This document shows, in pieces, positions 1 through 33,649 of a stretch of DNA of 64,000 nt; within the stretch, counting starts at the first letter, position 1, and every line of letters begins with the position of its first letter. The notes under the pieces are model-generated. The model was not told the DNA's origin. It ran no database searches and saw only the letters and a list, made by a program, of their open reading frames with translations. The position numbers and the translations under genes were made by a program. The stretch covers positions 1 through 64,000 of the forward strand of contig KZ538228.1 in assembly GCA_000934665.2 (NCBI GenBank), in the 5' to 3' direction. Source of the DNA: Catajapyx aquilonaris. Lineage: Eukaryota.

Positions 1-853
1 GTTGCTCTAATGAGTGTCACTACCTTCAGGTGGAAGGACATCATTATCAGCCCACGCCATCTACCTTAGGCTCAGAACTTATTGGACGACCCTCGTATGT
101 TGCGCAGAAACAAGCCAACCAATCAGCTTTTCTTCAGTGCAACATAATACCGAAGCAATAGTCGTGAGAGTGGTTTAGTAATGTCGTCACCTTTGCAGCA
201 TGTCGCAAGCACTGTGCCGCACGTCCAGATGGGTACGGAGATCCAGGAGCTGGCCTAATCTGCTGACAAGCAAGTTGTACGGATGAAGATTTCTATGTTA
301 TATTTGGATATTTCATATCTATTTTTTTCATGTGTATATTCAGAGAAAAGTTATTTTGCCGCAAGTGAGGCCACTTTTGTAAGTAGCAAATCCAGTAAAG
401 ATAATTGTGTCTTACTGCCTTATTTGGCTATTCGGAGGTGTAGTAACAATTTGTTACTACTATTTTGGTAATGCCCATTGCATTTTCTTCCTGTTGTTTT
501 TTATATACTTGTCACTTATCAGAATAAACAAGTTCAAGTACAACTAATCATAATCCCTTAATAATACTGTTTGGACTCCTCCCAGCATACCCATGATGTA
601 ATCTGCTGTTGCCCACATTCTGTTCAAGATTACACTTTAAAAAAATTGCAAATCATTTATCAAATGCGACTCTGCTGTATCATTAGGTCAGAGCCTGCTG
701 TGCATTATTCCTAAAACCATGCAAAATATTGCGCACACTTGTGTTCGGAGAAATTTTGTATACGCTTCCGTCTTTAGAGTCCAGTTTCAACAATTATTGG
801 TAGTTTACTCAACAGTGCATGCCTGTCACTATTAGAGACTGTTTAGCACCCAG

Positions 854-898
854 GTGATAATCTCTTATCACGGATTTATTTGCGAGATATAAATCAGT
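854..898 (+). promoter_or_regulatory. Candidate core promoter of copy 1: inverted GATA pair and TCAGT initiator-like motif, conserved upstream of copy 2
   Basis: gtGATAAtctcTTATCac at 854-871 and TCAGT at 894-898. The equivalent atGATAAtcTTATCag and tcagtt occur at ~2343-2385. Confidence 0.35.
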
Positions 899-953
899 AG
901 CTATGCTGATGAATGGCTTGCATCACAAAGAGGTTGCAACCGGACAAATTAAG

Positions 954-2024
954 ATGAAAGTATACTCTCCTATTGTAGACCATTGCTGCTTTTGTGTGTC
1001 GTTGAGGACTGGATCTCTCTCGTATGCGTACGTAACTCTAGTAAGTATTGCTACCCGTTAAAAGCTAGTTGGAAGATTAATGTCATAACATGTCAATAGG
1101 TGTGGTACGTTATATTTGCCATTGGATCCATCGCTTCGTTCGGGTTTGGTGTTGCATGGCTAGAAGAATCACATGGCAGGGTCAGAGATTTTGATGAATG
1201 TAAGCATAACAAGTAGTCAAACTATTCACTTATAGCCTGAAACTATCAATTTTTGTACATTAGCCTATGTCACAGGCAAGCTTGACTTACCTAGAATTAT
1301 TTTCACACAGATATGTACACAGGTATTACGACCATTTCGCTGACCACAACTATACCACTCTCAATTTCTGGGACCATCTTCAGTGCCATGCTGATCAACG
1401 GCATCCACAAGGTTAGGGTCACATTATAATTGGCACGAACATTGTTAATTCCAATTAAGTTCTCTCTCTGCAGGTGAACACAAGCCTCATGATACCGTGG
1501 ATTGCTCTCCAAGTTTTCTCAACAATTGACAGTGTCACTAGTGTTGTAGCTGCTTCCATTCTGATTCCGTCTGGTGCTACCATTGGCTTCAGTGTTGCCT
1601 TTGCAGGATTTGCAGTCCTAATAGAAATTACCGGCATCCTGGTTGTAACCAGTCATGTCCAGGTATCGTCATATACCTTGCCCTTGTAAATTCTGAAAGT
1701 AGTTGCGTAGTTATTGAATTTTTGTTGTTTTGCGACATCTATTTCCAGATAATTCAAAATTTTGCGTTATCTGATGCTCCCATGTAAATAAAAATCTATA
1801 TTTTCATGCAGTAAAAATATAACAAGTTATTTTGCAAATAAAGTTACTGATAATTTTAAAATCTTTCTTGGCAGGAAATTCTGAAGTCTAACGTGCCACC
1901 AGTGGACTACTACAATTTCGATCCAGCCCCTCAGCCTGCTCCACGGGTGATGCCCCAATCAGGGTTCAGGTTACCACCTGTGTCTGCAGCCGTACAAAAT
2001 AACTACCCATCAGTCCAGCATTAA
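954..2024 (+). CDS. Small multi-pass membrane protein, DUF4728/LAPTM-like, tandem copy 1 (~208 aa; C-terminal tail cut short by a frameshift)
   Basis: Exons 954-1040, 1100-1199, 1311-1411, 1474-1662 and 1875-2024 are joined by GT-AG introns in consistent phase. The N-terminus MKVYSPIVDHCCFCVSLRTGSLSYAYVTL is followed by hydrophobic segments and GIHK|VNTSLMIPW. The CCxCxxLRTG and G..K...L.PW motifs are typical of the DUF4728/LAPTM-like family (family call from recall, no search run). Confidence 0.7.
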
Positions 2025-2440
2025 TCAACCTTTTAACTTGGAAAGATTGGATTCAAATATGGGTAGACAAGGCTTGGCATGTAGCAACAGAGCACGTGAG
2101 ATGCGGAATGGACACAGACCTTGGACAACATAATCTAAGACTTTTTAAATAAATTTTGGCACAAAAGTTATGCTTATTGTTAGCGCTTACTACTTATGTA
2201 CCTGCTGATCGCCACATCTCATCCCATATGAAAGGTATGCATGTTTGCCAGTTTCAAAAAGTGATTGTAACTTCTCACATAATGTAATAAAATCCACCTT
2301 TTAGTTGGTAGTTTACTCCAAAGTATGTGACCGAGTAACCAGATGATAATCTTATCAGGGTTTTTAAATTGATATCAAATCAGTTACAATGCCAATGAAT
2401 GCCTTGTATCACACGTGAGGTTGCGACGAGAAGAATTAAG

Positions 2441-3493
2441 ATGAGAGCATACTCTCCTATTGTGGAGCATTGCTGCTTTTGTGTGTCGTTGAGGACCGGA
2501 TCTCTCTCTTACGCATACGTAACTCTAGTAAGTTACTACCTGTAACAAGGCAATTGCAAGATTCATGTCATAACATGTCAATAGGTGTGGTACGTTTTAT
2601 TTGGGATTGGATCCATTGTTTTGTTCGGGTTTGGCGTTTCATGGATCGAAGCACCACATGGCATGGTCAGAGACGTTGACGAATGTGAGTATAACAAACT
2701 CTTCGCTTAAATGGACTGAAACTATCAATTTTTCATATAGATACGTAGTGATTGCCTACCTCACAGGCAAGCTTGATTTCATGGTGATTTTCCTGGGATT
2801 GTTTTTATACAGATGTCTACACAGTTATTACGACCATTTCGCTGTCCACGACTCTACCACTCTCAATTTCTGGAACCATCTTCAGTGCCATGCTCATCAA
2901 CGGCATCCACAAGGTTATGGTCACATTATAATCGGCACAAACATTGTTAATTCCAATTAAGTGCTCTCTCTGCAGGTGAACGCCAGTTTAATGATACCAT
3001 GGATTGCTCTCCAAGTTTTATCAACAATTGGTACTGTGACCAGCGCCATCGCCACTTCCGTTCTGGTGCCTTGTGGCGCTACCATTGGCTTCAGCGTTGC
3101 CTTTGCAGGATTTGCGATCCTAATTGAAATTACTGGCATCCTGGTTGTAACCAGTCATGTCCAGGTATAGTCGTACAGTCGTTACTAATAAATTGCAAGA
3201 GCAGTAAAATTCTTATGAGAAATTAACACTCAAATAAAATAATATTTAAACATCTTTCTTGCCAGGAAATTCTGAAGTCTAAGGTGCCACCAGTGGATCA
3301 CTACAAATACGATCCAGATCCTCGGCCTGCTCCACAGGTGAAGCATCCGACCACGATACAGCTTGCAGCCTGTATATGCTGTGGCTGTAGGAAATACAAT
3401 GATCCACCTAGACTCTTGGAAAGATGGGACTCAAATATGGACAGACAAGACTCGGTGTATGACATCAGGCCATCACGCCGTGTGAGATACTGA
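2441..3493 (+). CDS. Small multi-pass membrane protein, DUF4728/LAPTM-like, tandem copy 2 (~234 aa)
   Basis: Exons 2441-2527, 2585-2684, 2813-2913, 2976-3164 and 3266-3493. The first four exon lengths (87/100/101/189) equal copy 1, with high nucleotide similarity. The protein runs MRAYSPIVEHCCFCVSLRTG to ...LLERWDSNMDRQDSVYDIRPSRRVRY*. Confidence 0.75.
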
Positions 3494-4015
3494 ACAGAGA
3501 AAGAACTTGGACCAGTACAATATGATTACATCAAATGCCGCCACATAGATTGTGCCGCAAAAGTTATAAGCATTTTGATAGCGCTAATGTGCCGGCTGAT
3601 AGCCAACAAATTCTAATCGTATAATTATCCAATGTCATTCTCTCATATGAAAGGTATGCACCGGAAATGTTACGTTGCTTGTGTACCGTTTCTTATCACT
3701 TCATACGGGCATTGCTGATAATAAAAAAATTGCATTTGCTAGTTTCGCAGTGAATGGTTACTCATTGGAATGTAATTAATCCACTTTTTACAGCCAAGTA
3801 ACATTTTAAATAAAGCCTTCACATTGATTACATGCCCAGATTATAATTGTTGCCACTGCTGCATAGGAAACCTGATATCGCAATTGATGGCCAGATAAGT
3901 TTTCTCCCTATGTCGTCACCTATCCTAGATGATAAAAGGGCTTTAGGTAAATGGCATTGGGGGTTAGTCTGTCATTTCATCACGGCTTACATCTGAGATC
4001 AGACAACGTTCCAAC

Positions 4016-5033
4016 ATGAGAAGACAGACTCCTATTGTGTCAAACTGCTGCTATTGCGTGTCATTGCGGACAGGTTCACTCGTTTTTGGATACATCTCAC
4101 TGGTATGATTCACTCATGATCCCAATAATTATGCAAGCTGATCGAAATTTTCTCAACAGGTGTGTTATGTTGTCGGTTCGGTTGGGTCACTTGCGTGGTT
4201 CGGAATGGCAGTTGCAGAGCTACTGGCATGGAGAGAATATTATAGGCCTATTGAGTCATATGAATATGTCATTGGTAAGTGATACATGAAAATTCAATTG
4301 TTATAGTGCACTCTTGTTCTGATCATGATCACTCGTAGGTTTCCCTATAATCATTACACTTTCAACAACTCTACCGCTTTCAATTGTGGGTTCAATCTTC
4401 AGCGGAATGCTAGTCAACGGGATCCATAAGGTTAGTAGCGCATGTGATTGAATCTACAGGAAGTTGTACTTTCACCATGTACTGCAGGCTCGTCCTAACA
4501 TCATGATTCCATGGATCGGACTCCAGTCACTGACACTCCTCATGACGCTGACAACCACTGTTGCCGTCTGCATAATCATGCCAGCCGGTGTGATCATAGG
4601 GAGCAGCGTGGCGTCCTGGGCAGTCGCCACACTTTACCAAGTCTGGAGCATTGTGATCATCCTTGGGCATGTGCAGGTACGTACACATTATCCTACCCTC
4701 GTTATGTAATTTGATATATCTGCAATCATTTGTTTATTGCAGGAAATAATCATATCCCAAGGGGCATCGTCATCGAACCCATACAACTTGAACTTGGGGC
4801 CTGTGATTCCCCCAGTGGACTACGAGAACTTCACACCTTCCGCTGATCTGCCTCAACTACGTTATGTGCCCGTCCTTCCCCGAGCCGAAGCAAACCCCAC
4901 CCAAAATGCTAACAGGAACGAACCCAATGGGTACCCAAGGAACTTGGAACGTCAAGGATCTAACGTGGGCCGACGCAACTCCACAAATGAAAACAGGCCC
5001 ACGGCCCACCAAGACAGACGCAACCGTTACTAA
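4016..5033 (+). CDS. Small multi-pass membrane protein, DUF4728/LAPTM-like, tandem copy 3 (~257 aa, more diverged)
   Basis: Exons 4016-4102, 4160-4274, 4339-4430, 4488-4676 and 4743-5033. Shared motifs: MRRQTPIVSNCCYCVSLRTG, LSTTLPLSI, NGIHK|ARPNIMIPW, HVQ|EII, PPVDY and NLERQGSNVGR. AATAAA at 5271-5276. Confidence 0.75.
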
Positions 5034-7325: not shown

Positions 7326-10300
7326 TCATCTCTCTGTACTTTCAGAGCTCTCCGACTGAGCTTCCTGTAGACTGTTCGAGGATTTCATTGTGAGCTTAGG
7401 TGCTGCTTCGGTCGACGTTCTTCGGCCTCCGATAGCCGAGCTGCAAGACACATATCGTCTCCTTGCTCCAGCCCCAGGACTGGACGACAACTGACCACCA
7501 GAAGTGCTGGGGCCAAATCCAGGGGCGGATCCCTGGTTCTTCCCGACACTACTGCCTCTTCTGGTTTTGTCTGGTTCTGACGCACGTCGCTGACGATGCG
7601 ACGAGAATTCACATGCGCTCTCCGAGGTACTCCGATTGCGGCGGCCACGGCGACCGTGTTCATCTATATCCAAGGGCTGACAATTCCAAACAGTTAACAA
7701 GTGAAGCAACTGAATTCCAGTAGCAAAAGGTACAAATTGGAACACTAGAACGCTTCTTCAGTAAATCAGGTAATAAAAGAATGCCCTCAAAAATGAAAGG
7801 CCCGTCGAGATCAAAGAACTTGCAGGAAGAACTCACCTCTAAAGCCCGGAAGTCATCAACAGTCTTGAATTTGGATAAGAATTCTTTGAGCTTGGGATCG
7901 ACTTCAAGCTTTTTGCTGTGCTTGTAATACTTCAGGAAAGCCCAGAACTTCTCCAGACCGTACAGCTGACCTGCAAATATAACATCAAAAAAAAACATCA
8001 AGCCTTGTTGACGCAAATCGAGCGAACACAATGCTACGAAACAAGCAGCCAAACTCTCTGCCTATAACAGCAATGAAAAAACAAGTAAGAAGCTAACCAT
8101 TTTCGTAGTCCCTCAGCGTCTCCTCCTGGAAGTTCTCGTAAATGACAACCCTGAACTTCTTCTCGAGGCCATAGCTGTAGAACCTGAAGAGGCACTCAAG
8201 TCCGTAGCGGTGACCTTCCAAGGCATCCTCGCAAGCTAGCGAACGAAATTCTTCATACATTTTCTGGTTGAAGTTTTCTCGAAGGAAGAAGGACCAGAAT
8301 CGGAACAGCGTGTTCATCTCGGACGACTGACCATGCCCCAAACGCTTGCGCTCTGCAACAGGGATTAAGAAGCAGCAATTAAAACTTCTGGTGCACTCAC
8401 TTGCCCGATGTTTACAACAACGGTAACCTTCAAATAGCTTTATACTTCAGAAATTGCATGGCATTCACCATCCCCAATTTGGGCTCTGTTGGGGAAAGAA
8501 GACAAAAAAATTTGCAAGTTCATCACTAGTCTTGATCATCAATCATGTTTCCATCTACTAATTGCACGATGTGCAACTCACTACGTCACAAATTAGACAA
8601 GACTTAAGATGTATCGAAACCACCATGACACGTTTGCAAGCAAAACGCACTGCAGACTTTGAACGTACGGACTTCACATATCTCGCAGGCACATGCGCAG
8701 AAACATTATTAGTTTTACCTTTGAGGCACCGCGCTCTGAACTTATGGTAACCCTGTTGTGTGAATCCGTTTGCCTCCAGGAGTGAGTGAGACGGGTGCTG
8801 GAATGGTGGCAGGGCCTGCGGAGTACTTCCATAGCTGCTTGACAGTGTTGGGTCACTCACAGGACTGGTACCACTAGGATCAAAAGAAATTACGTTATTA
8901 AGCATTCCCTTTTAAAAATTGCGTTGGACAGCACTTGAGCGGACAAACGCTGCGTCCAAATAATTTTCAAATGAACTGAAATCTCTTTGAATATTGACCT
9001 GAGAGAGCCACCCCTTGGCCTATGCTCCCTTGCGTCCATGATCCATCCCACGTGATATTCCACCGGAGAATTTCCATCCCTGTTTCTCGACTTCCTAGGA
9101 CTTCGCCCCACAGACTCGTCTTCTTTCATAACTGGATAGAAACGCAGATGCTCCCTAGGAACTCCTGAACCCTGGCTGACTCGGGGCTCTACCATCTGGA
9201 CGGAAAAGAGACATTCGCATCATAAGTCGCCTTTGAAATTATTGCGAATTTTCATTCCCTGTCATTCAACATTATTAGTCACACGTGGGTTTCTGAGGGC
9301 CATTTCATAAATTTGGCAGAAAAATTGCTGAGTGAGAAATACTTTGGCAAGGGAAATTAGTAAATTTCCACGTGCAAGTAATTTTGAGTGTGTTAGTTGA
9401 GACTGCAAGGGTGGTACGCTGACCTCGTCTGACTGTGCAGCTCCTTGTTCGAGCATGCTAGGTACCACGGGGGTATTGACTGGAGGTGGCGGTGGTGGCA
9501 CTTCAGGGTTGATAAACTTGGGCACAGGAGGAGCAATCTTCTCAAAGTCCTCTTGCGTAATCAGTTTCACAGTCTTGAATGATTCTTGGGACTGTTATCA
9601 AGCAAAAGTGGGGAAGGAAACAAGTTATTAGATGATCTCAAAAAGTCGCCCACGATAAAAACACAAAATTCCAGACAACTCACGTGCTCATTCTGCATCC
9701 TGAAGAGATCCTGCTCATAGTAATAAAGCCCGTCGTGAATGTTTTGCGCCACATCCTGCAGGCTTTTAACCCTTGTTGTCCAAACTCCTGTCCGGTCGTA
9801 ACCTTCATGCTTGGGGACTCGACTCGCCCCGGTTGGCAGTGGTTGAGGAGCTGATGGGTGGTACTGGGGATTCTGAGTCACTATCACCAACTTGCTCACA
9901 TCCAAGTCACTCAGCTCAAAGTCCGAGTCATCAGACCTGCAAACAATGAGAACAACATGCCAAAACTTCCCAACTCAATACACTGAAGTTTACACTAAAA
10001 ATTCAACTCACCATTCCGTGAAAGTATTGTGTCTCCCTGGCATAACGTCTAGCTCTTCGTCAAAAAGGAAGTCCCTCTCTTCTGGAGCTTGACCTTGGAA
10101 AGAATCCCTCCGCTCGCTCCCAACGCTGCACTCTGACATGCGGGACATCCTGTCTGTTGACATGCGGTCACGGGGGGATGCCTTTGCTTTCTTTTTGACC
10201 TACGCAATAGAATGACGGAATAAGAATCACAACAGCTATGTAAACCACACAAGGAAAATGTTCGTAGCCGAATCTTACAATCCTGTGCATTGAAGTTCTC

Positions 10301-13300
10301 CCATGGGCTTGACGACTTACATAAAAAAAATTTAGCAATTCCATATTAATGCAACTCCAATTTGCAATCAAAATGATTATTCCTCGACTGTAAAATTCAT
10401 TAAGTTGCGCAATCATCACACTCACGTTACACACCAAATCGCAGCAATCACCACATTTTCCTTGTGTATAAAACTTCACACACACTCAAGCTTAGGAGCT
10501 AAAAAGCCAAAGCACTGGCAGGAAGAAATATCTGAGGAAAAGGAAATAAAAAGCGTTGCACGGACGTCTCAGGTGGTTTTGTTTTGGCTCCAGGCGGACG
10601 CAACTTCCCCAGACACAGAGGAAGGAAAGAAAAAAGAGTGAAGACGAACCATTGCTCTCACCTCCCTCCAGATTTGCTCCACTTCCTCGCTCATCAAGGG
10701 TTTGTCTGACTGTCGAGTCGGGGTGGTAGGAGTCTTCTGTTGGCTTATGGAAGTGGGATTGCGAGTGGAGGTGGAAGTAGGGGGAACAATGGACCTTGAA
10801 ACAGGTTCATGTTGAGCAGGCAGTTCAGGTGAGGATTCAGGCAAAGAGTTTGGTTTCGTGACTTCAGCTCCTGACGGCAGTGAAGGTGGAGCTGGAAGTC
10901 CAAAAGTCATAAGGTGAGAGACTTGACTCAATGTGCACAAAAATTTTCATTAACGAGTCATTAAGTGGAATCAGAACAGTTTTATCTTTCACTTGCCATC
11001 AGTTGGGGAAAGAAGACATTATTATTTGTGATGTTCATCACTTGCCACATTTTCATTTCAGTCGAATCAACGAACACATGTTCTTCTTGCGCTTTTGCAC
11101 ATTTGTATCTGCGGAAATCTATAAATGTTAACTCTTTACCTTTTTGCTGATCTGTGACAGCATCCTTCTCCTCGGCCTTCTCTGCCACCTTCCCTTCCGT
11201 AGTCTCCACTTTTTCTTTGGCCACTGCAACTTCCTCCACTCCTCCGCTAGCAACAGGAACAAACTCAGGCACATTAGGGTTGAGGTTATCAGGGCTGCCT
11301 AATGGCCCATTGCTGAGGTTGAGAGGCTGGGGCAGAACGTAGGCAGTGTTGCGGGAGAAGCCGCCAAGCAGTGGCTGCGGGGCAAACTGCGCCACAGCGT
11401 CTGGTATGGGCCAGGTCTGTGGGTTGTGCTTCGTGCGCACTTTCCTCTCCTCCTCACGCAGCTCCAGGTGAGGGGAGGTACGGAGAGAGTCTGCTATAAG
11501 GGTCAGGTCGCACGTCAGCTCACGAACACGAGGGAATGAAGCAATCAAAGTGAGTGGCAGGAAGCCCTCGGGATCCATCTTTCTCCGGAGGTAGAAGTCA
11601 CGGACCAGATTATCTTCACTGAAGTAATACTCGCTGCAAGATGTAAAACACGAGTTAATATCCGGTCAAAATTAATCTCAAGACTTTAATAAACCATCTT
11701 TGCTTATTATGTGGCATCAGATACACTCTTTCTTTCATCAAATTCAGTTGGGGAAAGAAGACATTGAATTTTGCGTATTCATCATTTACTACAATTTATC
11801 AGAATATTGTAATTATTGTCCAATTGTTATTAACTTGGAAAAATGTGACTGGAAGAGCGGATTAATCCAACTCACATCTGCTTCCTGACAAACTCTTTGA
11901 GCGTGCTGTCTGCCAGTTGACTTGCTGCTGTCCCTCCAGACCCTGTCGTAGTTGCCTTTACAGTTGTTGTTGTTGTTGTCCCTCCCGTTGCTGCACTCCC
12001 ATCCACTGCTCCCCCAGGAGGTGGAGAGACCACCCCACCATTGACAGGTGTGTAGTTATTGTTGTAGTATTGGTAAGAAGAGTTTACATAGGGAATGACA
12101 AAGGTTGGATTAGATGGAAGATAGTCCAGCACTGTGTTGTAGTCTGGCGGAAAATCAAGGTAGTCTTCTGGATACTCCCTGGAAGGTGTTGTGGATCCAC
12201 CGCCCCGAGGGCCGCCCCCGCCACGTCCCCCTCTGGTTCCACCTCTTCCACGAAAACCCCTTCCGCTAAAGCGACCACGGCCTCGACCTGCACCTCGGGG
12301 GTACTCTGAACGGTCCTTAGGATCTTCCCGAGATGAGCCATCTAGGTAGACACACATCGTTAAAAACTAGCTTCGCAAGCTTTTCAAGTCTAGAATGATT
12401 GTTCACAGAAAACGACACAAAAGCAATGGTTCAATGCGAATAACATTTCCTTGGAAGCTACCCGCCATGAATGAGTGCAGTTCACTCACTGGAAGTAGCC
12501 ACAACAAAGTATCAGAAATCCTGAAGCATTCATATTATCAAAAGGTAATAATGTCACAAATTTTCATGTGCATTCACACGCTGCATAACTACAACCGAAA
12601 ACAATAGGGGGGTAGCACAGCACATCAATGAAGCAGCAACGGCTTGTGCAGTCATTCATATGCATCACCTCAAAATATTGCATGCCCCTTAGTCTCAGAA
12701 ACCTTTTCTATTCAAACTCCATGAATGCCCATTTACCAAGAAATGACAACCTGATGGCATTGTCTTGTTATCAAAATGGTTGGTACAAAACAATATACAG
12801 TAGCCAATGGTCATAACTGTTCCAGAATGGCTACTTCCCACACACCTTGATCTGCCCCACGTTCAAAGGACCTCTCCGAACCAAAACGAGGTGACCGCTC
12901 TGTCCTGCTTCGGTTGTAGTCATTCCTGGTAGTTGTCAGGTCTAGGCGAAGCCATTTTTGCTTTGGCACTGCCAAGAAAAATAAAAGCAAGTGTCACTCC
13001 CTTGAAAACAACACCCTTTAGTTGTGACATGCAAACCAGGCCCAATGCAAACTTAGTATTGTTACATAATTAACAGTGACAGCAATTTGCCTCTGAAGTT
13101 CCAAATGGCACACCAAAATGCAAAGCACATTTACGACTCATCATTCATGCAGCACACTAGGTGGAGAAAACTACCCATGACTGTGACCTGCCTCACCTTT
13201 CTTTTTCTTGTCCTTTGCGTCGCCATCTCCTGAGCCTTCCCCGTTTTCACTCCCACTCTTCTCCTGAGCTTCAGTCCCTCCGGCACTGGCATCCGGTGTC

Positions 13301-16300
13301 TGCGATACTATCGAGTTTGACTTTTCCACTGCACGGGAGTGCTGTTGGTGGTGTGCCTGAGAGCTTTGCGCTGGGCCTGACGACATGCTGGGAGGCCGCC
13401 GTTTCTACATGACACCAAATATTTGTGAAGCCTTGGTTGTATGCAGCCACAATTTAGCAAAGTAAATATTTGTAGCAAAGACGTCACCACGGCTACCACG
13501 TATCTAACCACCACTTGCGCGCTTACTAATACAAGTGCTAACTGTCATAATTTAAAATTCTGCCAACGTCAATTTAAATGCATAATCCATTTAACAAAGG
13601 CATTTACAGGGGCTCACTTATAGCTACTACAATTCACTAAGCTTAAATATTCTCGCTTTCACGCTACCAAGTTGTTACAAAACCTGACCCTTGAATTACA
13701 ATAGTTATCAGACAGTCATTATGACTTGCCTCACTGACTGCTACGTGTAGGTAATGGGAAACAAATGCTTATTCAAGATTTCGGGAAAACCCATTTCCAT
13801 TACAAATGTGAAAAGGCCACGACTGTCAGTCAGGACGCAAGTCTCCAGCAGTGTTTATTCAATTTGCAAAAGTTCAAGTCTAAAGTGAAGAGCTTTCTAC
13901 TGTTGCAGCGTTACGATGTACTTAAAAAAAGAGTCTGTCATGGACCACATCCAATGCGACTTAATTACCTTGACAGCCTCAACGATGTGAACCTCGTCAA
14001 GCGTGGGCCAATCGTTCATGTCTGCAAAGTTGCTGGCTTTGTGGTTGATTCTCTTAGCATCACAGCTGGCTTTCACGATGGTTGGCTTCGAAACAGGAAC
14101 TGGACCGTTCTCTACAGTGCCAAGGAAAAAAGAGAGAGAGAGAGAGATAAAGACATGTCACACTATTGATTCTGTTGCAGATTGTGATGCAATTCCTGTC
14201 CAATATAATTAGACCTACAGAAATCTTCATTTAACCCTCCTGCAGTAAACAAGTGCGATAGGGCAATGCAAATCCTCCGTGAAGGGCATTTCTTAGTTGG
14301 CCAATTTTATTAAGCTCACTTGTATGCGGCTACCATTAAACTCAATCCAACTTGACAAAAATTTGGAACAGTGTCAAAACACTTCATTGTGAGTCAATTT
14401 TTACATACACCTTGTAATGTTTAATTTTTCCATATGAATAGTCCACGCATCCCCAACATTATTCCAAGGCTGAAAAAATTATTCCAGCTGCACATAAATC
14501 AACATGTCAGCTTCCCTTTCACAACCACATCCCAGTAATAGTCGAAGCTTCAAAAGTCCAACGACCAATTACCAACAGCTATTAAAACATAGTTGCTTGT
14601 ACTACACCCTACATAAATAATTTTAGGACTGATAAGCTGCAGAGAGCAAACATTTAAAAAAATTGGCAAATGAGTCCAACTGGTCAATCCTAATCGGATT
14701 TGCAGAGGTCTGTTGGCAAATGTGACTTCTCAGTGGGCTGTTCCTGGGACAAGGCCACAGACAGACTGTTATGGGGGGGACCTAAACTGCTCCGATGGAA
14801 CCAAGTTGAAGGCCACAGATAAAGGAGGTCAAGTGGGACAGGTCATTCAGTGTCAGCTTATTTTTTTCCCCCCATCCCTTACTCAATACGATATGGGAAC
14901 ATCTAATATGTATTAATTTTCAATAAAAGTACTGTCAGGTCATGCTGTAGTGCACACGACCGGAAAAACAATTTTTCATTGCCAATGTGAGAAGAGGAGT
15001 CATTTCAAGGCACATTTCAGGAGGTTTATGATCTGACCACGTTTCATTTACTACGCCAGCCGTAAATCACCAGGAATGATCACTTTCGTCATAAACTTAA
15101 TTTTTAAACCACCTGTAATAAGAAATTCGGAATTACTCCACTTCATGTAGTACGGTACATTACACTGCAACCGTCTCCCATGATAACAAGATTCATTCAA
15201 AAATTCGCGCTTCATATGAAATAACATGGTATATGTGGGAAATATGTCAGCTCCATTTACTTATGTACACAAGTGAACTAATGGCTAGCATTTAAGTCAA
15301 TGTCAAGCAACAAGGTTGATCCAAAAAATTTCATAACCACATGTCAATATGCAGCATGTGCCTGTCATAACTGAGTCAATATAACCAACATTATGCAGCG
15401 ATTCAAAATGATAGAAATTTTCTGTTGGCTTATATTAACCAGTCAAATGAGTAAATCTCACTACTTTAGTTAAATCTAATATGAACCAACATATGAGGCC
15501 ATAAAAGTTCCCCTGATGAGTCATGATAAGGCCGCACACCTGCGCCGATTTTTCCCGGAAGAGACGTCACCGTAACAATGACAACAATGCAAACTTCCAA
15601 AAAAAATAACGACTGAACACATTTTAAATAATTTCCACATTAGTTTTCACTACCATATCACATGTCCACAACGCAATTATCTTCGCACAATGCGAAAATG
15701 CGTCGCAGATTCGGCTATACGATACTGGGCGACACCATCACTTTTAAAAAAAGCCCGCATTTACATCACACCACGCACACAAGCCAACGAGACAACATTG
15801 CATTGTCATCCCAATAATTGACACATCCGACCACGTCCCCAAACTCCGCGAATAATTTACTCAAGCACAATATTTGCTGACAAGTCCCCCTCCCATCAAG
15901 ACACAAATCACACGACCATCCACTAAATGGCAAGCAGGCACGAACTCCTTACTCATTAAGGAGATCCTCCCCCCCACACAACTAGCACCTGTGGGTCACA
16001 AGTCTCCTACAAACACTCTGCTCATCATGTAATATGAGGCAAGGATGCCACGTTTCGTCTACCTGTGTGCATGGCAACACCGGTTGGCATGCGCACTAAA
16101 CGGGTTATTTTAGACAGTAAACAGACGAGAAGCGTGAGATGGGGTACAGCAGTAGGGGGGGGAGAGGACACCCCCGAAAATTTTTCGAGAGAGACTTGCC
16201 AAGAAACTTTGGGTTAAAGGCCCTACCAACCTTCCTTCAAGCGGCGATACTCCCACGAGATAACACGCCATTTTTTTATTTAAAACAAAAATAGTGGAAC

Positions 16301-19300
16301 TAATTTCTTTAAAATGTTACATAACAATTTTTGCCAGGAGAGATAATTGACCTATCTGTACTGAGGTGCAAGCAATAATTGCTGTGCATAACCTGTCTCT
16401 TTTTATCAGGCGTTGAATCAAAACGGTATTCGAAGGGAAAGCAAAATGGACATACCAAAAATTACAGATCAGAATTTCAGAATGTTGAAAATATTTTCTC
16501 TTTAATATTTGTGTTCGTTCAATACTATTCTACTCGTCCTAATACAGATGCTGTAATTTGCGCAGGATTGGTCAATATTCAGATTTTTAAAAGGAGAAAG
16601 AGTCCGATTTTATGCAAATATCTGGCATTTGAAAGTCGAGCAAAAAAAATTTTTTTTGTGTATTTTAAATGCCACACTGGTAGATAATGCAATATTTTCG
16701 GGAGTTATATTGTTCACTAGAGTTCGGCTTTAATTAAATTGGCACGTATTAATTGCATTTTCCAATTGAATGATGTCACATTTTGCAGCCATGCTTTTGA
16801 AATAATTCGTTTTAGCAAACGTTTGCTTTAGTGAACAATATGAACCTTTTTTTATTTTTTAAAAAAAGCACATCGCCTACCAAATGCTATAAAATACGAA
16901 ATCTGCATAGCGCCAATTTGAAACGCCAAAAAAAATTTATCAAAGCAGTCAATTTTCCCAATTGAGGACTAATAAGACGGGAAAAATTGACAGCGTTGAA
17001 ATTTTTTTGGCATTTCACATTGGCTATCAAATATGCTAGGAAGCTTGCAGAATTTCGTGTTTTTAAAATGGCAATATTTTAATGGCGAAACTCAGACCTA
17101 ATAAGCATAATCTATTATTATTATTAGGAGCAACCTTCCAACTGCAAATTATAGTTCAGCAATAACATCAATCCCTTTCTCCCCCGCTTGAAAAACACTT
17201 TTTTAAAGTCAACACCACCTATAAATACCATTTCGAAAAATATACCCCGACAAAACAACTTTTCACACTTTTTTTTTTTTTTTTGCATACAGTTCAAGCA
17301 ATATTAAAACTCACATGTGACCCTCTGATCAAAACGTGCCCTCCTGACGCCGAAAAAAAAAAAAATCGCGCGCAACACACCAATTTCGGTCCACACTCCC
17401 GAGAAAACAACACAACCACTAAAAATAATTCCTCTCCATTCCCTCTCCCCCACACCCTTTCCAAACACCCCCTCCTCCCCCCTTCTCTCTCTCTCACACA
17501 CACATACAACGTCAGTGGTGAGACTATACGAGCAACTGCCACGTACGAACGCAATGTGAATGTCAGTTCCATACGTGAGTGGGAAGTGATAAAAAGGCCT
17601 CTTATCGGAGAAGGCCTGCCTGATAATTTCCCATTTTACGCCATGCAGACCTCTTCATATTATGTACTTTGCAGTGCGACGCTTCCTGTTGTCATCGCGT
17701 CATTACGCTATTGGCTTGCAACCAGGCTTTATACAACGCGACTCTAAAAGTCAGGACACATCGGTCAGTTGGTTTCTCCAATTGTTCCAACTCCACCTTT
17801 ATACTGACTGTCAACAATCTGCTAGTTGGCACAACTGGAAACCAACAATACAATCCAGACTTTACAGTCACCCTGTAGTTTGCTTCAAAATAAAAACATT
17901 GGGTGGAATTTTCCTCCCACTGCTGAGTTACTGCTAACTTAACAGTGCCAGTGTTGGCCATGGAGCGCTGTTAACCGCAAAACATTTAAAAGAGCATCAC
18001 TAAAAATGCTGCTCTGATGCTTTTTAGCAACAATAAAGCATTACAAGATGTTCAATGGGAGGCTCACCAGTGATGCTCTTTTAATGTGGGGGCGAAAAAA
18101 AAAATCGACCCATAATTTCATAATAATGTATCAGCCCGTATCTGAGGGCCACTGGAGACATTTAAAAAAAAAAATAGCCAGGTAATTCGGCTTCTGATAA
18201 CAATCCTGATTGAGTTTGGCCACCTTTTGCGAACCCAATCTCTTCCTCCCCTGATTGCATCACTTCAGGGTGGTGGGAGGGAAAAAAAATTGCCCTGCAA
18301 TTACGTCTCTGAAAAAAACTGCTGCTGCCAAAAAGCTTTGGCGTCCCTTCCCCAAAAAACCGGTCCAGACTTTTAAAACTCTTTCCCCCCCCCCCCCTTC
18401 TTTTTACCTGCCAACCCACCCCCATGGCCAAAAACCCGACTACTCCCCTTTTGCCGTTTTTTCACCCCCCACCACCACCAGGCCACCAACCATCCCCCAA
18501 CTTCTCCTAGAGCTTAAGCCAGCCAGCACCATTCACAGCCCAAGGCCAATGTCCTCCAACTCGGTTGGCCCAGTTTGCTACTCTTGTTCAGTTCCTCGTC
18601 CCTTCTCCTTTGGCAGGCAGGCCCAGGCAAAAGAAGTGAGCAGGTGTGGCCCACCTTCATGTCGACCTTACTTTCAAACCGCTATCGATATTCAAACTGT
18701 TAAGAAAAATATTTTGTACCGTTTTTTTTTTTTTTGATCGGACAGTAAGGCCCGAAGAAACTCCAGCAAAATCGGATGATGAAATCATAGTTTCGTAACC
18801 GGTAATAAATCAAGCCTATTTTCAGCCCACATTTTTAAATAACCGGACGGTTTAATATTGGCACTAGTTTCCAAATCAAAATGTCACGTGTCGAACCTGA
18901 CAGTACACTGCCACCTGTACCCACATATAGGCAAAGCACCTATTTCTGTCTCATTAATCCTTCCTAGATTACACCCGCGCTTCACAAAAACTGTACGAGA
19001 AGGAAAAAAATCACCATCATTTACTAAAATATAAATAGTCCTGCAACACTGCAAAGTGCACTCGCCTCAAAAAACCAGCCAAACCTGCTACACAGGTTCA
19101 AGCCCACCAGTTTAATAGACCCTATACTAATTGACGGCAGGTTTGACAACAACGACAAAATTACAAAAAGTATCACTGTCTTCTGACTCACAATGTTGCA
19201 GTTACAACAATGCACAATTTCGTAATTTCCAGGCTTGCAATTATTGTACGACAGGGTCTCTATAGTACCGTCTTAAAATAAAATGTAGGCCAAAACTCAA

Positions 19301-22300
19301 GCAAGGGACCATGCAAATTACACCTTTTTTCCACGCTTGAAATCCTCTTAGAGTGTACAAGTGACTCACATCTTAGCCGCAAAAAAAAAGTCGCAATTTT
19401 TTTTTCACGCTTCCCATGCCATTGTCTCCTCCAGTTATGCAACTTTTTAAGAAACATTGGTTGGTGGGAGAAGTGGGAAGACAAACAGGCCGATTAGTGG
19501 TTATCAACTAAAAACTGATATCGATGAAGTTACAGGTGCACACATTTAAAAAAAAAAAAAAAAAAAGACTGCGCATGATATGTTCTTAGCTGTAAGTGAC
19601 CTTCATGAATATGCATCAGGTTACTCAAAAGGTAGTCATAAAGTTGATTTTGAGCCATGTAATAACCTGGACAAAAATATTCACAGGTTTACACTTTTTT
19701 TTGTGCCTGTTATGCAACAGACGCACTTCAACATGTGCTGATTGCGTAACTCGTGCGAATTTTTTTCTCCACATCATTGCCAATTGTTGTTTACATTTTT
19801 GCATCTCTTTATCTTCATTTGCTCTACATTCGGAAGACCCATTTGCTTGGTAGCTGAATGATAAATGCCAAACAAGATGGTGGGTTCAATGAATATGCGA
19901 AATATCACCCACTTAACTGATCCATATGTTAATTACTTATTAATCGGAAGAGGCTGCCAAAAAAAAACTGTCCAATGTTACAAACACACGCGACATGCTT
20001 TTCGATCCTGACAATGGGCTCCCAAACACACATGAAAATTAATCACATGCACACAGCTGGCAGCTTGTCCACATGACCCTTGTAGCCACGTCATTACCTT
20101 GCTCGCAATTCTGGCAAGTCACCAGCTTTTAATATAAAAAAGGCATAACTACAATAACCAAAGCTGGTACTTCATGTAATGCTGCAGACATTTGCATCAT
20201 TCTGCACATCGCTTCATTGCTATTCAGAACCTATCGTCGGTGTTTTTTGTTCCCCTCCCAACATATTAACCTCGGTGTAAACACAATTACGTAACGACAA
20301 TGACACAGTACGTAGTGCTGCTGTGGTTAGTCCATATGGTAATGCAGAGTGAGACAGCACCTATTGCTTGAAGCACGAGAAGCTTCCCTTTGCGCGATTT
20401 TATCCTGAGTATGCAATTTGCATACGTTTACTGCACTCTGCATGTTTGCATGCACATAATGACGACTTTTAAAGCACAAAAAACGTATCATGGGCTTATA
20501 ACCGGTGGATTAAATGGCATGTTGGCTTAACTGTGGTACTGCCCACATTTTCTTACGAATTTCAAACATTGTTTTGAATGCAGATGTGCTCAATGCTTGT
20601 ACTAGTTAAGACTTTATTTTGCAGAACATATTGTAATGCCACTGGAGATTAGACTTACACATTGCCTGCAAAACAGTGTGTTATGCAAGAAGGAATCAAA
20701 CCATAGTTCAAGATGTTGGATAATTTCAAATGGAGATAACCATTGAAAATTGCCTGTGCACAAGATCACAAGGTAGTTTTGATAATACTCTTTCGCTGCA
20801 TTAGACACAGTAAATTACAGTACAATTTCTAAAATTCCCCTACCTAGTGCTTTGACCTCTGCTGAGTTGACCTCTGCTGGCGTAGGTCCAACGGAGCCAG
20901 CAGTGGTTGCTGTGGCGCCAACTGACCTCCGTTTAGTCCACGGGTTGACCCTCGGCGGCGGCGCCTCCACAAACTTCTTCTCTGTCTCAGGCGGCTCCGA
21001 GCCCACTGAACTCCTTTCACTAGCTTCATCTGGCAAACCATTACCAACAGGATTGGAGGATCTGCTTCGGCTGACGGCACTGCTCGGTGGGGCTGCATCT
21101 GTAGACGAATGTTTACGCGAGCCCGCACTTTTGGACCTAACAACTACCATGGGGTCCTCAAACTCTTCAGTCTCAGGACCACCGTTAGTCTGCTTTATGA
21201 CTGAGGTTGGGGCGGCTGCAGGTGGCGACACTTGTTTCACTGCAGCTGCTGTGTTGATAGGAGACTTTTGTGGGTCCGGCTTGAGAACTGGGTCTGCGTT
21301 TGGTTTGTGTCCAGACTGAAAAGATGGACAGGAGAAAAGTCATTCAATTATTTCACTCTCCAATCACATCCTTGCCAATCTGGCATTACCAAGTAACCGC
21401 TTTACTAAGTTACAGGCAAAAAAAAAAAAAAATTACAAATTCTTCCATATACACCACATTCCTCAGTAACATTTAATTCCCTGCAGATACATCAGTGTGG
21501 TACCAATAGGGGCAGCTGAATTAGCATTTATTTAAGTATCATGTACGTGGCCTCCACAAAGCCATTATTCAGAACAGAAGCAGTCACAACAGCTGCATCT
21601 ACGTCAGCAAATCATTGCAAGTGAGTACCGAGAGGAACTGAACATACACCAGGTACACACAATATTCTACCTACTATTTCCAGCAATTACCAGTTGCTGA
21701 GAACAGTTCGAAAAGGATGATGTTCCTGTAGTCATGGACCAAAATTTATCAGGATGGAGTCGCTTGACTTCATTTCATTCACTAAAATAGCAGCCATGCA
21801 CATATTCCATATTCATGACTCACCACACGATAATATCGGTTGTAACTGATACTTCCGACATGCCATTAAGAAGTCCTATTCATTACAATCTTCCGAGGAA
21901 GCCAGAAAATAATTATATGCAAAGCTGGATGCTGCAATGCTATTTGCAAACGAGTGATTAATACCAGATTTTCACTTGACTTTTCCTGCCTCAAAAGCAG
22001 TGCTGCCATGTGGGAGCCGTAACAGTAAACAACCATATTTCTGGCCTTCCATTGTTGTCATATATAGATACTGCAGAAGGGATCCTATATTTAACCTTGA
22101 TATTACAACTGTTTTTTATGAAGCAATTTTTTCACTTATTCTGGATTAATTTTCCAAAACTTTTTGCTCCTGATCCTTTCAATTCCACTGGTCCGAAGTG
22201 CAGGATAAAATGCCAAAATTTAATATCAACCCAAATTTTTGGGATTATTTGCCAAAATCTCATGGCATTTTGGGACAGAGGAAACTGGCCTATTGAACAA

Positions 22301-25300
22301 CACATCACATTACAATCGAATAGAAAGTAAATTTCTGCTGTATGACGTTTTATTTTTACAAGATGGCAAAACATATTTCTCATGCAAAAAATTCATGACT
22401 TACACATCTCCCAGCAAGTGTGATTTTCAATATTACTTTCTCATATGACTGGTTTCAAACCATCAGCAATCAACCCTAGTAGCAAAATTTTTCACACCTG
22501 CCATTTTCAATTAGCAAACAGTAAAATTTTCCATCCCTTTTACAGTGTCAAAGCCATTCACCACCTGCAGAAGTAAAAGTGAAAAGCCAATATGCATAAC
22601 TGCGTTGCAAAAGCCAAGACACTTTTTGTTATCCGGCTCAGTAACTTTTAGAAACTTTCATTAAGTTTAATGTAACAATGAGTAGTTTAAATTAAACAAC
22701 AAAGCTGCATGTCCCAATTAGCTGTGCAACAATTATCCTGCAAGGTTAAATGCATTTGCCATGTACTTGAGGATACTGTTAATCAACCCCACATAAAGAT
22801 AACATGTTTTCATAACACTAAGTCAATGTTTTTATCTTAACCTCATGTTGGAATATGATCTAAATCCATTTTCAAATAACATTTTAAAACGCTTTCCTAA
22901 CCTCAGATAACCTCTCGGTGGCAGCTCGAAATTATTATAATTGCAGCATATTTGACGCACTCAATCCGCTGCTGATATGCGAACATTCCACACAAAGGAT
23001 GTTTTACGAGCACCTTTATTCAGTGAGAATGCAGGGCTTCATTTATCACCTGCAACCACACACTTCATTATGATACTTCAATAGACTGATCCAACTACAT
23101 ATGGTCTACATCAGAAAGGAAAAAAGTACTGTATTACAAGTCCATTTATGATCCATTTACATTGTACGACTAATAAAAATGACAAAACTTATGGCACAAT
23201 AAAATTTCAAATTTGCTGTCGCATTAATGTCACTGACCTTACTCAGTAAGAACTGAGAAAATCTTTACTAATAGCATCTCATCACCTCTCGGGCGCTGAT
23301 AAAATAATGTACGCAATGTAAGTAAATAGTCTGCACTATCCTGTGAGCCTAGCAATGGCAGGTCGAATGGAAGTCCAGGGTTTAACCTTACGCCTTCAAT
23401 CTTTGATATGGATACATTACCCACTTCCATCTCCTGCCGGGACACACTTTCACTCTGTCTGCTCAGGGCTATAAGTAAAGGTCTCGTGCAATGAAGAGCC
23501 CAAAAAGATTAATGATTCGTTGTTGCAACGTATCTCCTAAAGTAGCATGTGATATACCCGCCTGTTTAGTAACGTAAAATGAATTATTCTTAACCTTTAG
23601 CTACCTGGCAGCTGTACAATTGAAATCCCTGGGCGAAACCTTTCCCAGAAATAAAGTAGCATTTTGATGTTTATTCCCATATTCTCAATCCAAGCCCTTC
23701 TGTAGTTAGATTTCCAGGAAGGTTAATTAATAGAAGACGTCCATTGCTTTTCTGGAACTTGATCTAGTTTATTCGGTTCTTCCGACTTCTGAAAGCTCTC
23801 GGCAGCGGTCAGACATAGTGGTGCTGGCAACGACAAAATCATGACGTCTGTATTTGCAGCTTTGTTTTTCTTCAGAAAGAATTCACTGCCTGGCATTGGC
23901 TCATTGTCAAATCACACCACCGCATACCTTTGGTGTGTGCTGTGTAGCACTTTCAAAGTGTGCGTTTACGGACAGGCATCGATTCCGTTTAAGTCTTTTA
24001 AGATATTGAAAATTGGTGCGTTAAATATCTATCAGGATTGAATTTCAATTGTACCACAATAATTATTACTGGAACTTGTTCGTAATATCAGATGAAAAAG
24101 AAACACTTAATTTTTAAATACCTGTAGTGAATATTTGGGTGTGAAAGATGAATATCTGCAATTTTCTCTGCAAAACTGCAGAAATATTAATTTTTATGAC
24201 AATGGCAGTTAATGATCAATTTTTTGAGTCCACAATGTTCACTAAAACTGCTGCTTAAATAAATCAATGCTCCCTCCTGGTTGCACAATGTGGTCAAATG
24301 GGGCTATTGCAATGGGGAATGCCCATATTTTAACTGCAGTCAAATATTACTGTTTGCAAACAATGTGACTTTCATAAAATTGGCCATCACCTGTCAAAAA
24401 TTAAATTGAAAATGCTGGCAGGTTCTTTGCACCTTCCACAGCCACATAAAATGCGAAAATTAGTGAACTCGCATCTTTCATGCCTTTTAAAAATCTGTTG
24501 ATATTAAAACCTTCCAATAAAAATATTATCATGGGCCACTGCATAATTAATCCTCGGTAACAATTTTCCTGAAATCAGTCCTCATTTGCACAGCATCATA
24601 ACTGATTTGGCAACATTGTCACCTCATAATTGTGTTGCATAATCAACATGCTGCCAAAACATCAAAATGGGCCAGTCATTCCCTCATAAGCTCATCGCAC
24701 TAACGTTACACTGTACACAACCCCCCCCCAATCTGACCATGAGTTACAAAGAAACCTAATCTGGCTACCTTGTGATGGGTTATCTCAACTCATTTCTTGG
24801 CCATCCCTCCAAGACTGATAAGGAACCATTTTCTTCTTCTAATAAACAAACAGCTAGCATAATTGCAAATTTTAATAATCATGTTACACTCAATTTCAAA
24901 AGCAATATTGACTGAACTTGACATGCTGCGTACTTTATACATGAGCGCATGTTCATGAATCGCAACAGCATGTGCATCGACATGGAGCAGGGCATAGGCA
25001 CAAACCGGTACAAACATAACTGCTAAGTACATGGGTATGTACGGAAGCAGGGTGCCAACTGGTATGTGCATGTGTAGGAAGAAATTCAGGGTGCCAACAG
25101 GTATGTGCATGTGTAGGAAGAAATTCAGGGTGCCAACAGGTATGCGCATGTGTAGGAAGAAATTCAGGGTGCCAACAGGTATGTGCATGGGCGCTAACAG
25201 AAGCAAGATGCCAACCGCTTAGTTCATGAGTATCAACAGACGCAGGGTGCCAACCGCTAAGTACACGGGTACACCAAAAGCAGGGTGCCAACCGTTATGT

Positions 25301-29639: not shown

Positions 29640-33649
<4,010 letters not shown>

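Follow-up and report, generated by a model that had tools for sequence, protein, structure and literature searches.

Guides for one guanosine of the large-subunit (LSU) ribosomal RNA (rRNA) are known among the box C/D small nucleolar RNAs (snoRNAs) of several eukaryotes. Table S4 of a Drosophila snoRNA map equates fly 28S Gm2774 with human G3878/3899 (SNORD12, 12B), yeast G2395 (snR190, predicted), Arabidopsis Gm2396, Xenopus Gm3050 (SNORD12, three copies) and Dictyostelium Gm2661 (CD2/3) (PMC11014333), and tables S3 and S4 of the same study record this orthologous G as methylated in Drosophila, with a score of about 0.95, and in human, Xenopus, Arabidopsis and Dictyostelium. The fly guides Me28S-G2703a, b and c are given there as 81–88 nucleotides (nt) long and as lying within about 570 base pairs (bp) of the long non-coding RNA (lncRNA) Uhg5. 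Elsewhere, S. pombe snR107, S. cerevisiae snR190 and human SNORD12/B/C are treated as orthologues; snR107 is described as methylating S. pombe G2483, and the human copies as occupying introns that follow one another in the lncRNA ZFAS1 and carrying a ‘relatively small ASE2’, a second antisense element (10.1101/2024.10.03.615557). Yeast G2395 itself is reported to be unmethylated, snR190 acting as a chaperone via base pairing and being regulated by the helicase Dbp7 (PMC8536666). Here we analyze a 64-kb stretch of Catajapyx aquilonaris DNA (contig KZ538228.1, positions 1 to 64,000; the window), in which three short elements lie within introns of the protein-coding gene LARP1. We hold with good confidence that these are paralogous intron-encoded box C/D snoRNA genes, putative counterparts of SNORD12, Me28S-G2703, snR107 and snR190, a reading that draws on box anatomy, intronic position and complementarity to rRNA. 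A preliminary description of the window had proposed such a set and had contrasted its host with the non-coding ZFAS1 of vertebrate SNORD12, a host assignment that the published account confirms (10.1101/2024.10.03.615557).

The elements are united by the 15-mer GTCTTCTTTCCCCAA, which occurs in exactly three copies with no mismatch in the 64-kb window, all on the minus strand (Table 1). Permitting up to two mismatches revealed no extra site across the window. In 100 dinucleotide-preserving shuffles, the mean was 0.24 matches and not one of the 100 reached three. Three exact copies are far above chance level, and the proposal that a single 15-mer is common to three LARP1 introns, on the sense strand, is borne out.

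The identity of the host gene, which had been named as LARP1, was established by Pfam domains on the minus strand: La, with an E-value of 1.4e-18, on an open reading frame (ORF) over 10982–11665, and LARP1_HEAT (the DM15 region), with 4.6e-45 on the ORF at 8093–8446 and 4.6e-12 on that at 7660–8061. In the database, the La exon best matched arthropod and nematode proteins named LARP1, and the identity of 44–49% among the best-scoring matches indicates that a close relative is not present in that collection. LARP1 homologues align along the locus exon by exon. The single public run that contains this stretch (run X1, its kind not on record) yielded spliced contigs that are identical to the exons and leave out ten introns, each bounded by GT..AG when read on the minus strand. 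Two of the three host introns, those holding B and C, are confirmed by these contigs. For copy A, a host intron absent from the listed spliced joints is predicted from its GT..AG ends, the continuous frame VRKQ/IEYYFS and the corresponding KKQIEYYFS of homologue P0004. The intron of B directly follows that of A, and the intron of C lies six introns beyond that of B. The relative spacing of the introns, earlier numbered 6, 7 and 13, is therefore correct, and the absolute numbers fit if one more 5′ intron exists. Run X1 gave no cover over the three elements in the listed pieces and depth bins and is uninformative on expression.

Table 1. Position of the LARP1 elements and of other features in the window
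Feature	Position	Strand	Basis
Host gene LARP1, part seen	7660..21339	minus	Pfam, homologue alignment, spliced contigs
La exon	11140-11633	minus	
LARP1_HEAT exons	about 8090-8352 and 7819-7974	minus	
Host intron of copy A, 242 nt, directly before La-motif exon	11634..11875	minus	inferred: GT..AG ends and frame
Host intron of copy B, 248 nt	10892..11139	minus	X1 spliced contig skips 248 nt (CT..AC ends on + strand)
Host intron of copy C, 366 nt, directly before first LARP1_HEAT (DM15) exon	8353..8718	minus	X1 spliced contig
Candidate snoRNA copy A, about 84 nt	11710..11793	minus	sequence anatomy
Copy A boxes: C AUGAUGA; D′ CUGA; D CUGA	11785-11779; 11747-11744; 11720-11717	minus	
Copy A guide	11762-11750 plus AA	minus	
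Candidate snoRNA copy B, about 84 nt	10965..11048	minus	sequence anatomy
Copy B boxes: C GUGAUGA; D′ CUGA; D CUGA	11041-11035; 11002-10999; 10974-10971	minus	
Copy B guide	11017-11005 plus AA	minus	
Candidate snoRNA copy C, about 87 nt	8444..8530	minus	sequence anatomy
Copy C boxes: C GUGAUGA; D′ CAGA; D CUGA	8526-8520; 8488-8485; 8450-8447	minus	
Copy C guide	8503-8491 plus AA	minus	
15-mer sites	8489-8503; 11003-11017; 11748-11762	minus	exact match
ABHD18	29643-32574	minus	Pfam
Three DUF4789-bearing ORFs in GC-rich stretch	42138-43881	minus	Pfam
LisH-bearing ORF	53374-53835	minus	Pfam
ETF-ubiquinone oxidoreductase	54628-56580	+	Pfam

The three copies follow a common layout, composed of RUGAUGA, 16–17 nt, GUCUUCUUUCCCC-AA, the D′ box, 23–34 nt containing a C′-like motif, and CUGA. 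In every copy the D′ box stands two bases past CCCC; copies A and B have CUGA there, copy C has CAGA. The span from box C to box D measures 69, 71 and 80 nt in A, B and C, respectively, and the distance from the end of box D to the 3′ splice site 83, 79 and 94 nt, with all copies on the host sense strand. Processing of intronic C/D snoRNAs is favoured by a spacing of about 70–90 nt before the 3′ splice site. The 3′ ends had been placed ~73–91 nt upstream of the splice site, which fits the 79–94 nt found here, counted from box D and not from the stem ends. Copy A has a consensus C′ box (UGAUGA) 3 nt after D′ and a terminal stem, UGUAG/CCACA, with four of five positions paired and one A·C mismatch. 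Copy B has the C′ motif UGAAAGA and a 4-bp terminal stem, GUGG/CCAC; copy C has UGGUGA as C′ and a 3-bp stem, ACU/AGU. The latter copy can also form an internal hairpin of 6–7 bp, in which CCCCAA (8494–8489) of the guide pairs with UUGGGG (8477–8472), located between D′ and C′. This hairpin (8472–8494, minus strand) mimics the rRNA target. Of the features claimed earlier, boxes C, D′ and D are present in all three copies, whereas the terminal stems of two copies turned out to be weak. A relaxed C/D scan of the window returned further candidates at 49977–50091 (+) and 30610–30558 (−), which were set aside as lacking an rRNA-antisense element.

Comparing the copies segment by segment, we found identities of 15/15 for the guide, 6–7/7 for box C, 3–4/4 for D′ and 4/4 for box D, against a baseline of 33–36/60 for the intron flanks in the same aligner. 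Guide and boxes are kept above the flank baseline, so that conservation falls on the functional parts. Between A and B, the two stem regions agree at 7/10 and 8/10 positions and the spacer at 12/17, making these two the closer pair. The D-side spacers of the three copies differ, with 13–17 of 24–34 positions identical. The view that the D′ guide alone is conserved must accordingly be given up, as the boxes, the AA dinucleotide and the terminal-stem region of A and B are conserved too.

As proxies for the target, we scanned a prokaryote genome collection for GGGGAAAGAAGACCCTGTTGAGCTTGAC, which gave at least 28 eukaryote-type LSU ribosomal DNA (rDNA) stretches, these standing in for Catajapyx's own rRNA. 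The 13-nt segment GUCUUCUUUCCCC, occupying positions 3–15 upstream of D′, forms 13 Watson-Crick pairs with GGGGAAAGAAGAC in all 28 stretches listed. GGGG follows GC in 27 of these stretches and TT in none; the duplex is therefore 13 nt long, the AA next to D′ remaining unpaired in those 27. The 15-mer had been described as antisense to conserved 28S rRNA over its whole length, which holds for 13 bases and fails for this AA. Screening both strands of the entire window against 1705 rRNA 11-mers common to at least four proxies identified the three guides as the only antisense matches of 13 nt or more, the remaining matches being 11–12 nt long and at about chance level. The pairing site, helix H73, lies at the base of LSU domain V, next to the peptidyl-transferase centre. 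In the proxy stretches, the D′+5 position faces the third G of GGGG in GGGGAAAGAAGAC. Yeast snR190 is reported to pair with a sequence that includes C2392, in the vicinity of the predicted site G2395 (PMC8536666), and because of this position and the GC-GGGG context the third G corresponds to yeast G2395, the equivalent of human G3878, S. pombe G2483 and fly G2774. Geometry and site equivalence thus agree with the original choice of the third G by the D′+5 rule.

The proxy records deserve an observation of their own. At least 28 of them (L036–L063), labelled bacterial or archaeal, contain an exact 28-nt eukaryote-type LSU rRNA motif, which in one case lies inside a 1.16-Mb contig (L036) and in another occurs twice on one 24-kb contig (L060, L062). 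Eukaryote-type rDNA in bacterial and archaeal records probably reflects eukaryotic contamination or chimeric assembly.

Elements of the same kind were found in metagenomes. A scan for TGATGA, 5–30 nt, GTCTTCTTTCCCC and NNNNGA returned 35 loci, of which 14 were, by inspection, AT-rich and eukaryote-like with box D at a suitable distance; the other 21 were mostly GC-rich chance matches or loci without a suitable box D. We aligned 13 of the 14, omitting L019 as a near-duplicate of L011. All 13 have the layout of the LARP1 copies, with 69–76 nt from box C to box D and terminal stems of 0 to 8 bp. CAGA serves as the D′ box also in L031 and L033, the C′ region GUGAAAGAUA is common to copy B and L010, and a CCCC/GGGG internal stem in L033 resembles the hairpin of copy C. 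Searching the 35 loci with 120 LARP1 homologues (tblastn, E≤1e-4) produced no match; many of the contigs are only 2–5 kb long, and the result is compatible with LARP1 hosting in close relatives. Pfam was applied to 140 ORFs of at least 80 amino acids flanking the snoRNA in the 14 loci. In L031, an exon with a Ribosomal_S19 domain (RPS15-type; 1819–2254, +) stands just upstream on the same strand, and in L022 the snoRNA is placed between exons of an RSE1/DDB1/CPSF1-type beta-propeller protein (682–2308, minus), a host being indicated in both. Domains near L012, L015 and L033 bear no clear relation to a host, and the flanking ORFs of nine of the 14 loci had no Pfam match. As different hosts are indicated for L031, L022 and the LARP1 set, the host varies between lineages, as is usual for snoRNAs.

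Several observations weigh against the identification of the three elements as snoRNA genes of this family. The Rfam comparison with SNORD12 and snR190 that the preliminary description had put forward as a check was run, and no copy reached the threshold: at gathering score, Rfam had no match in the whole window. At lax thresholds, the best family for copy C was RF00581 SNORD12, which scored 15.9 bits (E 0.69) where its gathering score is 43, in an alignment that rests on CUUcUUUCCCCAaCAGA, that is, guide plus D′, and leaves box C unplaced. Copies A and B had no SNORD12 or snR190 row at E≤10; at this cutoff, the 3.7-kb region and A and B alone matched generic C/D families at 10–21 bits, copy A reaching 20.6 bits in its best such row. 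A and C have weak terminal stems, and a window scan requiring at least four contiguous bp in the terminal stem recovered only copy B in LARP1. B and C each have a degenerate C′ box, and the hairpin of copy C sequesters CCCCAA, the last six bases of its guide. The guides upstream of box D lack a convincing target in the proxy rDNA, where the D-side spacers gave only G·U-rich matches of 9–12 nt, no better than shuffled guides. Finally, the folds of all three copies show no extra stability over shuffled sequences (z −0.42 to +0.71). Fold stability at the level of shuffled sequences is usual for C/D snoRNAs, yet lends the identification no support. Regarding Rfam, the SNORD12 consensus has UUUCCCC, two bases and CAGA, the same register as copy C, the score of which does not amount to membership by the model, yet reflects the same guide and D′ register.

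Two further Rfam rows concern the same gene. The guide and D′ of copy A (11742–11760, minus) match the 3′ end of Tetrahymena TtnuCD5 (positions 59–77, 15.1 bits), which hints that a ciliate snoRNA, too, has this antisense element beside a D-type box. A row for snR87 at 10310–10408 (minus; 20.9 vs 37 bits, E 2.9) falls in the 462-nt LARP1 intron 10198–10659, with GUGAUGA just upstream; lacking a box D CUGA, it was dropped and is probably due to chance.

If the elements are snoRNA genes, each snoRNA would be released from the spliced LARP1 intron via debranching and exonucleolytic trimming, and the binding of the core proteins Snu13, Nop56, Nop58 and fibrillarin to its C/D and C′/D′ motifs would protect it. 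In the resulting small nucleolar ribonucleoproteins (snoRNPs), GUCUUCUUUCCCC would pair with GGGGAAAGAAGAC in H73 and set the third G opposite position 5 for 2′-O-methylation by fibrillarin; the predicted target is the equivalent of fly Gm2774, human Gm3878 and yeast G2395. Such pairing may in addition keep the helix open in early pre-60S assembly, as shown for yeast snR190. The three copies would have arisen by local copying of the guide within a host that codes for protein and is related to translation, one copy in each of three introns. Box anatomy, host introns, complementarity and site identity come from the analysis itself; we infer the rest of this scheme, namely processing, snoRNP assembly, methylation and the activity of all three copies. 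The checkable interpretation of the preliminary description is supported, with corrections on duplex length, stems and conserved parts.

The weaknesses of individual copies raise the question of whether all three are live. Copy C combines the variant D′ box CAGA with a 3-bp stem, a degenerate C′ and a hairpin over part of its guide, one terminal-stem position of copy A is mismatched, and B is the only one to pass the scan for stems of at least 4 bp, so that some copies (most likely C, possibly A) might be decaying duplicates without stable snoRNPs. However, decay should erase the 15-mer, box C and box D, all of which the three copies retain while the intron around them is at baseline. The traits that make C and A suspect also recur elsewhere: CAGA is the D′ box of the Rfam SNORD12 consensus and of L031 and L033, the terminal stems of the 13 metagenome relatives vary as well, and an internal stem onto the antisense element is found in L033 and is reported for yeast snR190 (PMC8536666). 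We consider partial decay of the set rather unlikely, though it merits attention. A different possibility is that the RNAs are made but serve mainly as pre-60S assembly chaperones or placeholders, leaving the G unmethylated. The yeast precedent, in which snR190 works by base pairing at an unmethylated G2395, argues for such a role, as do the degenerate C′ boxes of B and C, the same feature having been suggested as the reason for the missing guide activity of snR190 (PMC8536666). On the other hand, methylation of the orthologous G is on record for Drosophila, human, Xenopus, Arabidopsis and Dictyostelium (PMC11014333) and for S. pombe (10.1101/2024.10.03.615557), and copy A has consensus D′ and C′ boxes only 3 nt apart. 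The chaperone and methylation roles are mutually compatible. A set that mainly chaperones and leaves the G unmethylated appears improbable to us.

LARP1 binds pyrimidine-rich 5′ terminal oligopyrimidine (TOP) motifs, and the shared 15-mer contains a 12-nt pyrimidine run, UCUUCUUUCCCC. The motif could hence be imagined as a pyrimidine-rich intronic regulatory element, bound by LARP1 or a splicing factor, or else as a fragment of a dispersed repeat. But a protein-binding tract needs neither a box C 16–17 nt upstream, nor C(U/A)GA exactly 2 nt downstream, nor CUGA a further 23–34 nt on, and it does not need a perfect 13-nt rRNA match common to snoRNA-like loci of other eukaryotes. A dispersed repeat, in turn, sits poorly with the absence of further copies from the 64-kb window, even at two mismatches. 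We regard this explanation as very improbable.

With respect to novelty, neither the family nor its target is new, nor is the occurrence of three copies in neighbouring introns (fly Uhg5, human ZFAS1, Xenopus), and the host gene LARP1 appears to be the sole new element. In a literature search, judged mostly from listings, no paper found named LARP1 as a snoRNA host, and the word ‘larp’ is absent from the accessible text and supplementary tables of the Drosophila snoRNA map (PMC11014333). The one LARP1 passage seen in PMC4792531 concerns a microRNA neighbour. The search and the fly tables thus agree with the earlier statement that the arrangement was not known to be described. Protein-coding snoRNA hosts are stated to be mostly genes for ribosomal proteins, ribosome biogenesis, translation factors and RNA-binding proteins (PMC11014333), and LARP1 fits this translation-related class. 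Given that snoRNAs often switch hosts and that hosts are usually translation-related, the LARP1 arrangement fits the known pattern and challenges none. A more far-reaching scenario would have the guide moved from a dedicated non-coding host into LARP1 and kept there in three introns clade-wide, with its output tied to LARP1 transcription and splicing; we consider this doubtful. If true, LARP1 would be a growth-regulated, host-gene-like transcript linking translation control of ribosomal proteins to rRNA modification or pre-60S folding. Since LARP1 controls the translation of ribosomal-protein/TOP mRNAs, a guide hosted by it would tie two arms of ribosome production to one transcript. Irrespective of this scenario, the candidate genes would add one more lineage to a guide family that spans Dictyostelium to humans, and another independent case in which the family is kept as three intronic copies per host. 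The practical value lies in annotation, as these are three putative snoRNA genes that would escape pipelines built on Rfam.

Outside LARP1, the window carries the neighbouring genes listed in Table 1 and two repeat arrangements. At 25078–25166 (minus), the rRNA k-mer screen brought up a unit of about 39 nt that is repeated three times head to tail. Positions 1–5000 (+) contain three tandem units of about 1.5 kb with similar strings of short ORFs, for example at 953–1099, 2440–2679 and 3968–4108; two long ORFs tested there had no Pfam match, and the units may represent a tandemly triplicated small multi-exon gene.

Among the described systems, Drosophila Me28S-G2703a/b/c (CD53a–c) resemble the LARP1 copies in being C/D guides for the orthologous G, present as three paralogues in one host, and, compared by table entries, in having AUGAUGA as box C and CUGA as box D, as in the layout found here. 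They differ in that their host Uhg5 is a non-coding ‘U snoRNA host gene’, whereas the host in the window is protein-coding. Human SNORD12/12B/12C likewise consist of three intronic copies in one host, with a D′-side antisense element that directs Gm3878 (3899); here, too, the host is non-coding, and the SNORD12 covariance model recognises no copy in the window at threshold. S. pombe snR107 and S. cerevisiae snR190 share with the LARP1 copies a D′-side antisense element pairing with the same H73 sequence. snR107 is moreover intronic, being located in an intron of mamRNA, but has extra roles in meiosis, and snR190 is similar to copy C in its internal stem onto the antisense element (PMC8536666), but is 190 nt long, non-intronic, co-transcribed with U14 and does not methylate. 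Upstream of box D, both fungal RNAs possess a further functional antisense element (ASE2 or box B), for which no conserved counterpart was found in the three LARP1 copies upon comparison with the proxy rDNA and alignment of the copies. The known settings are thus either an lncRNA host (ZFAS1, Uhg5, mamRNA) or linkage to U14, and the LARP1 copies match none of them. As hosts vary among the metagenome relatives too, the genomic setting is not a defining feature of guide function in this family.

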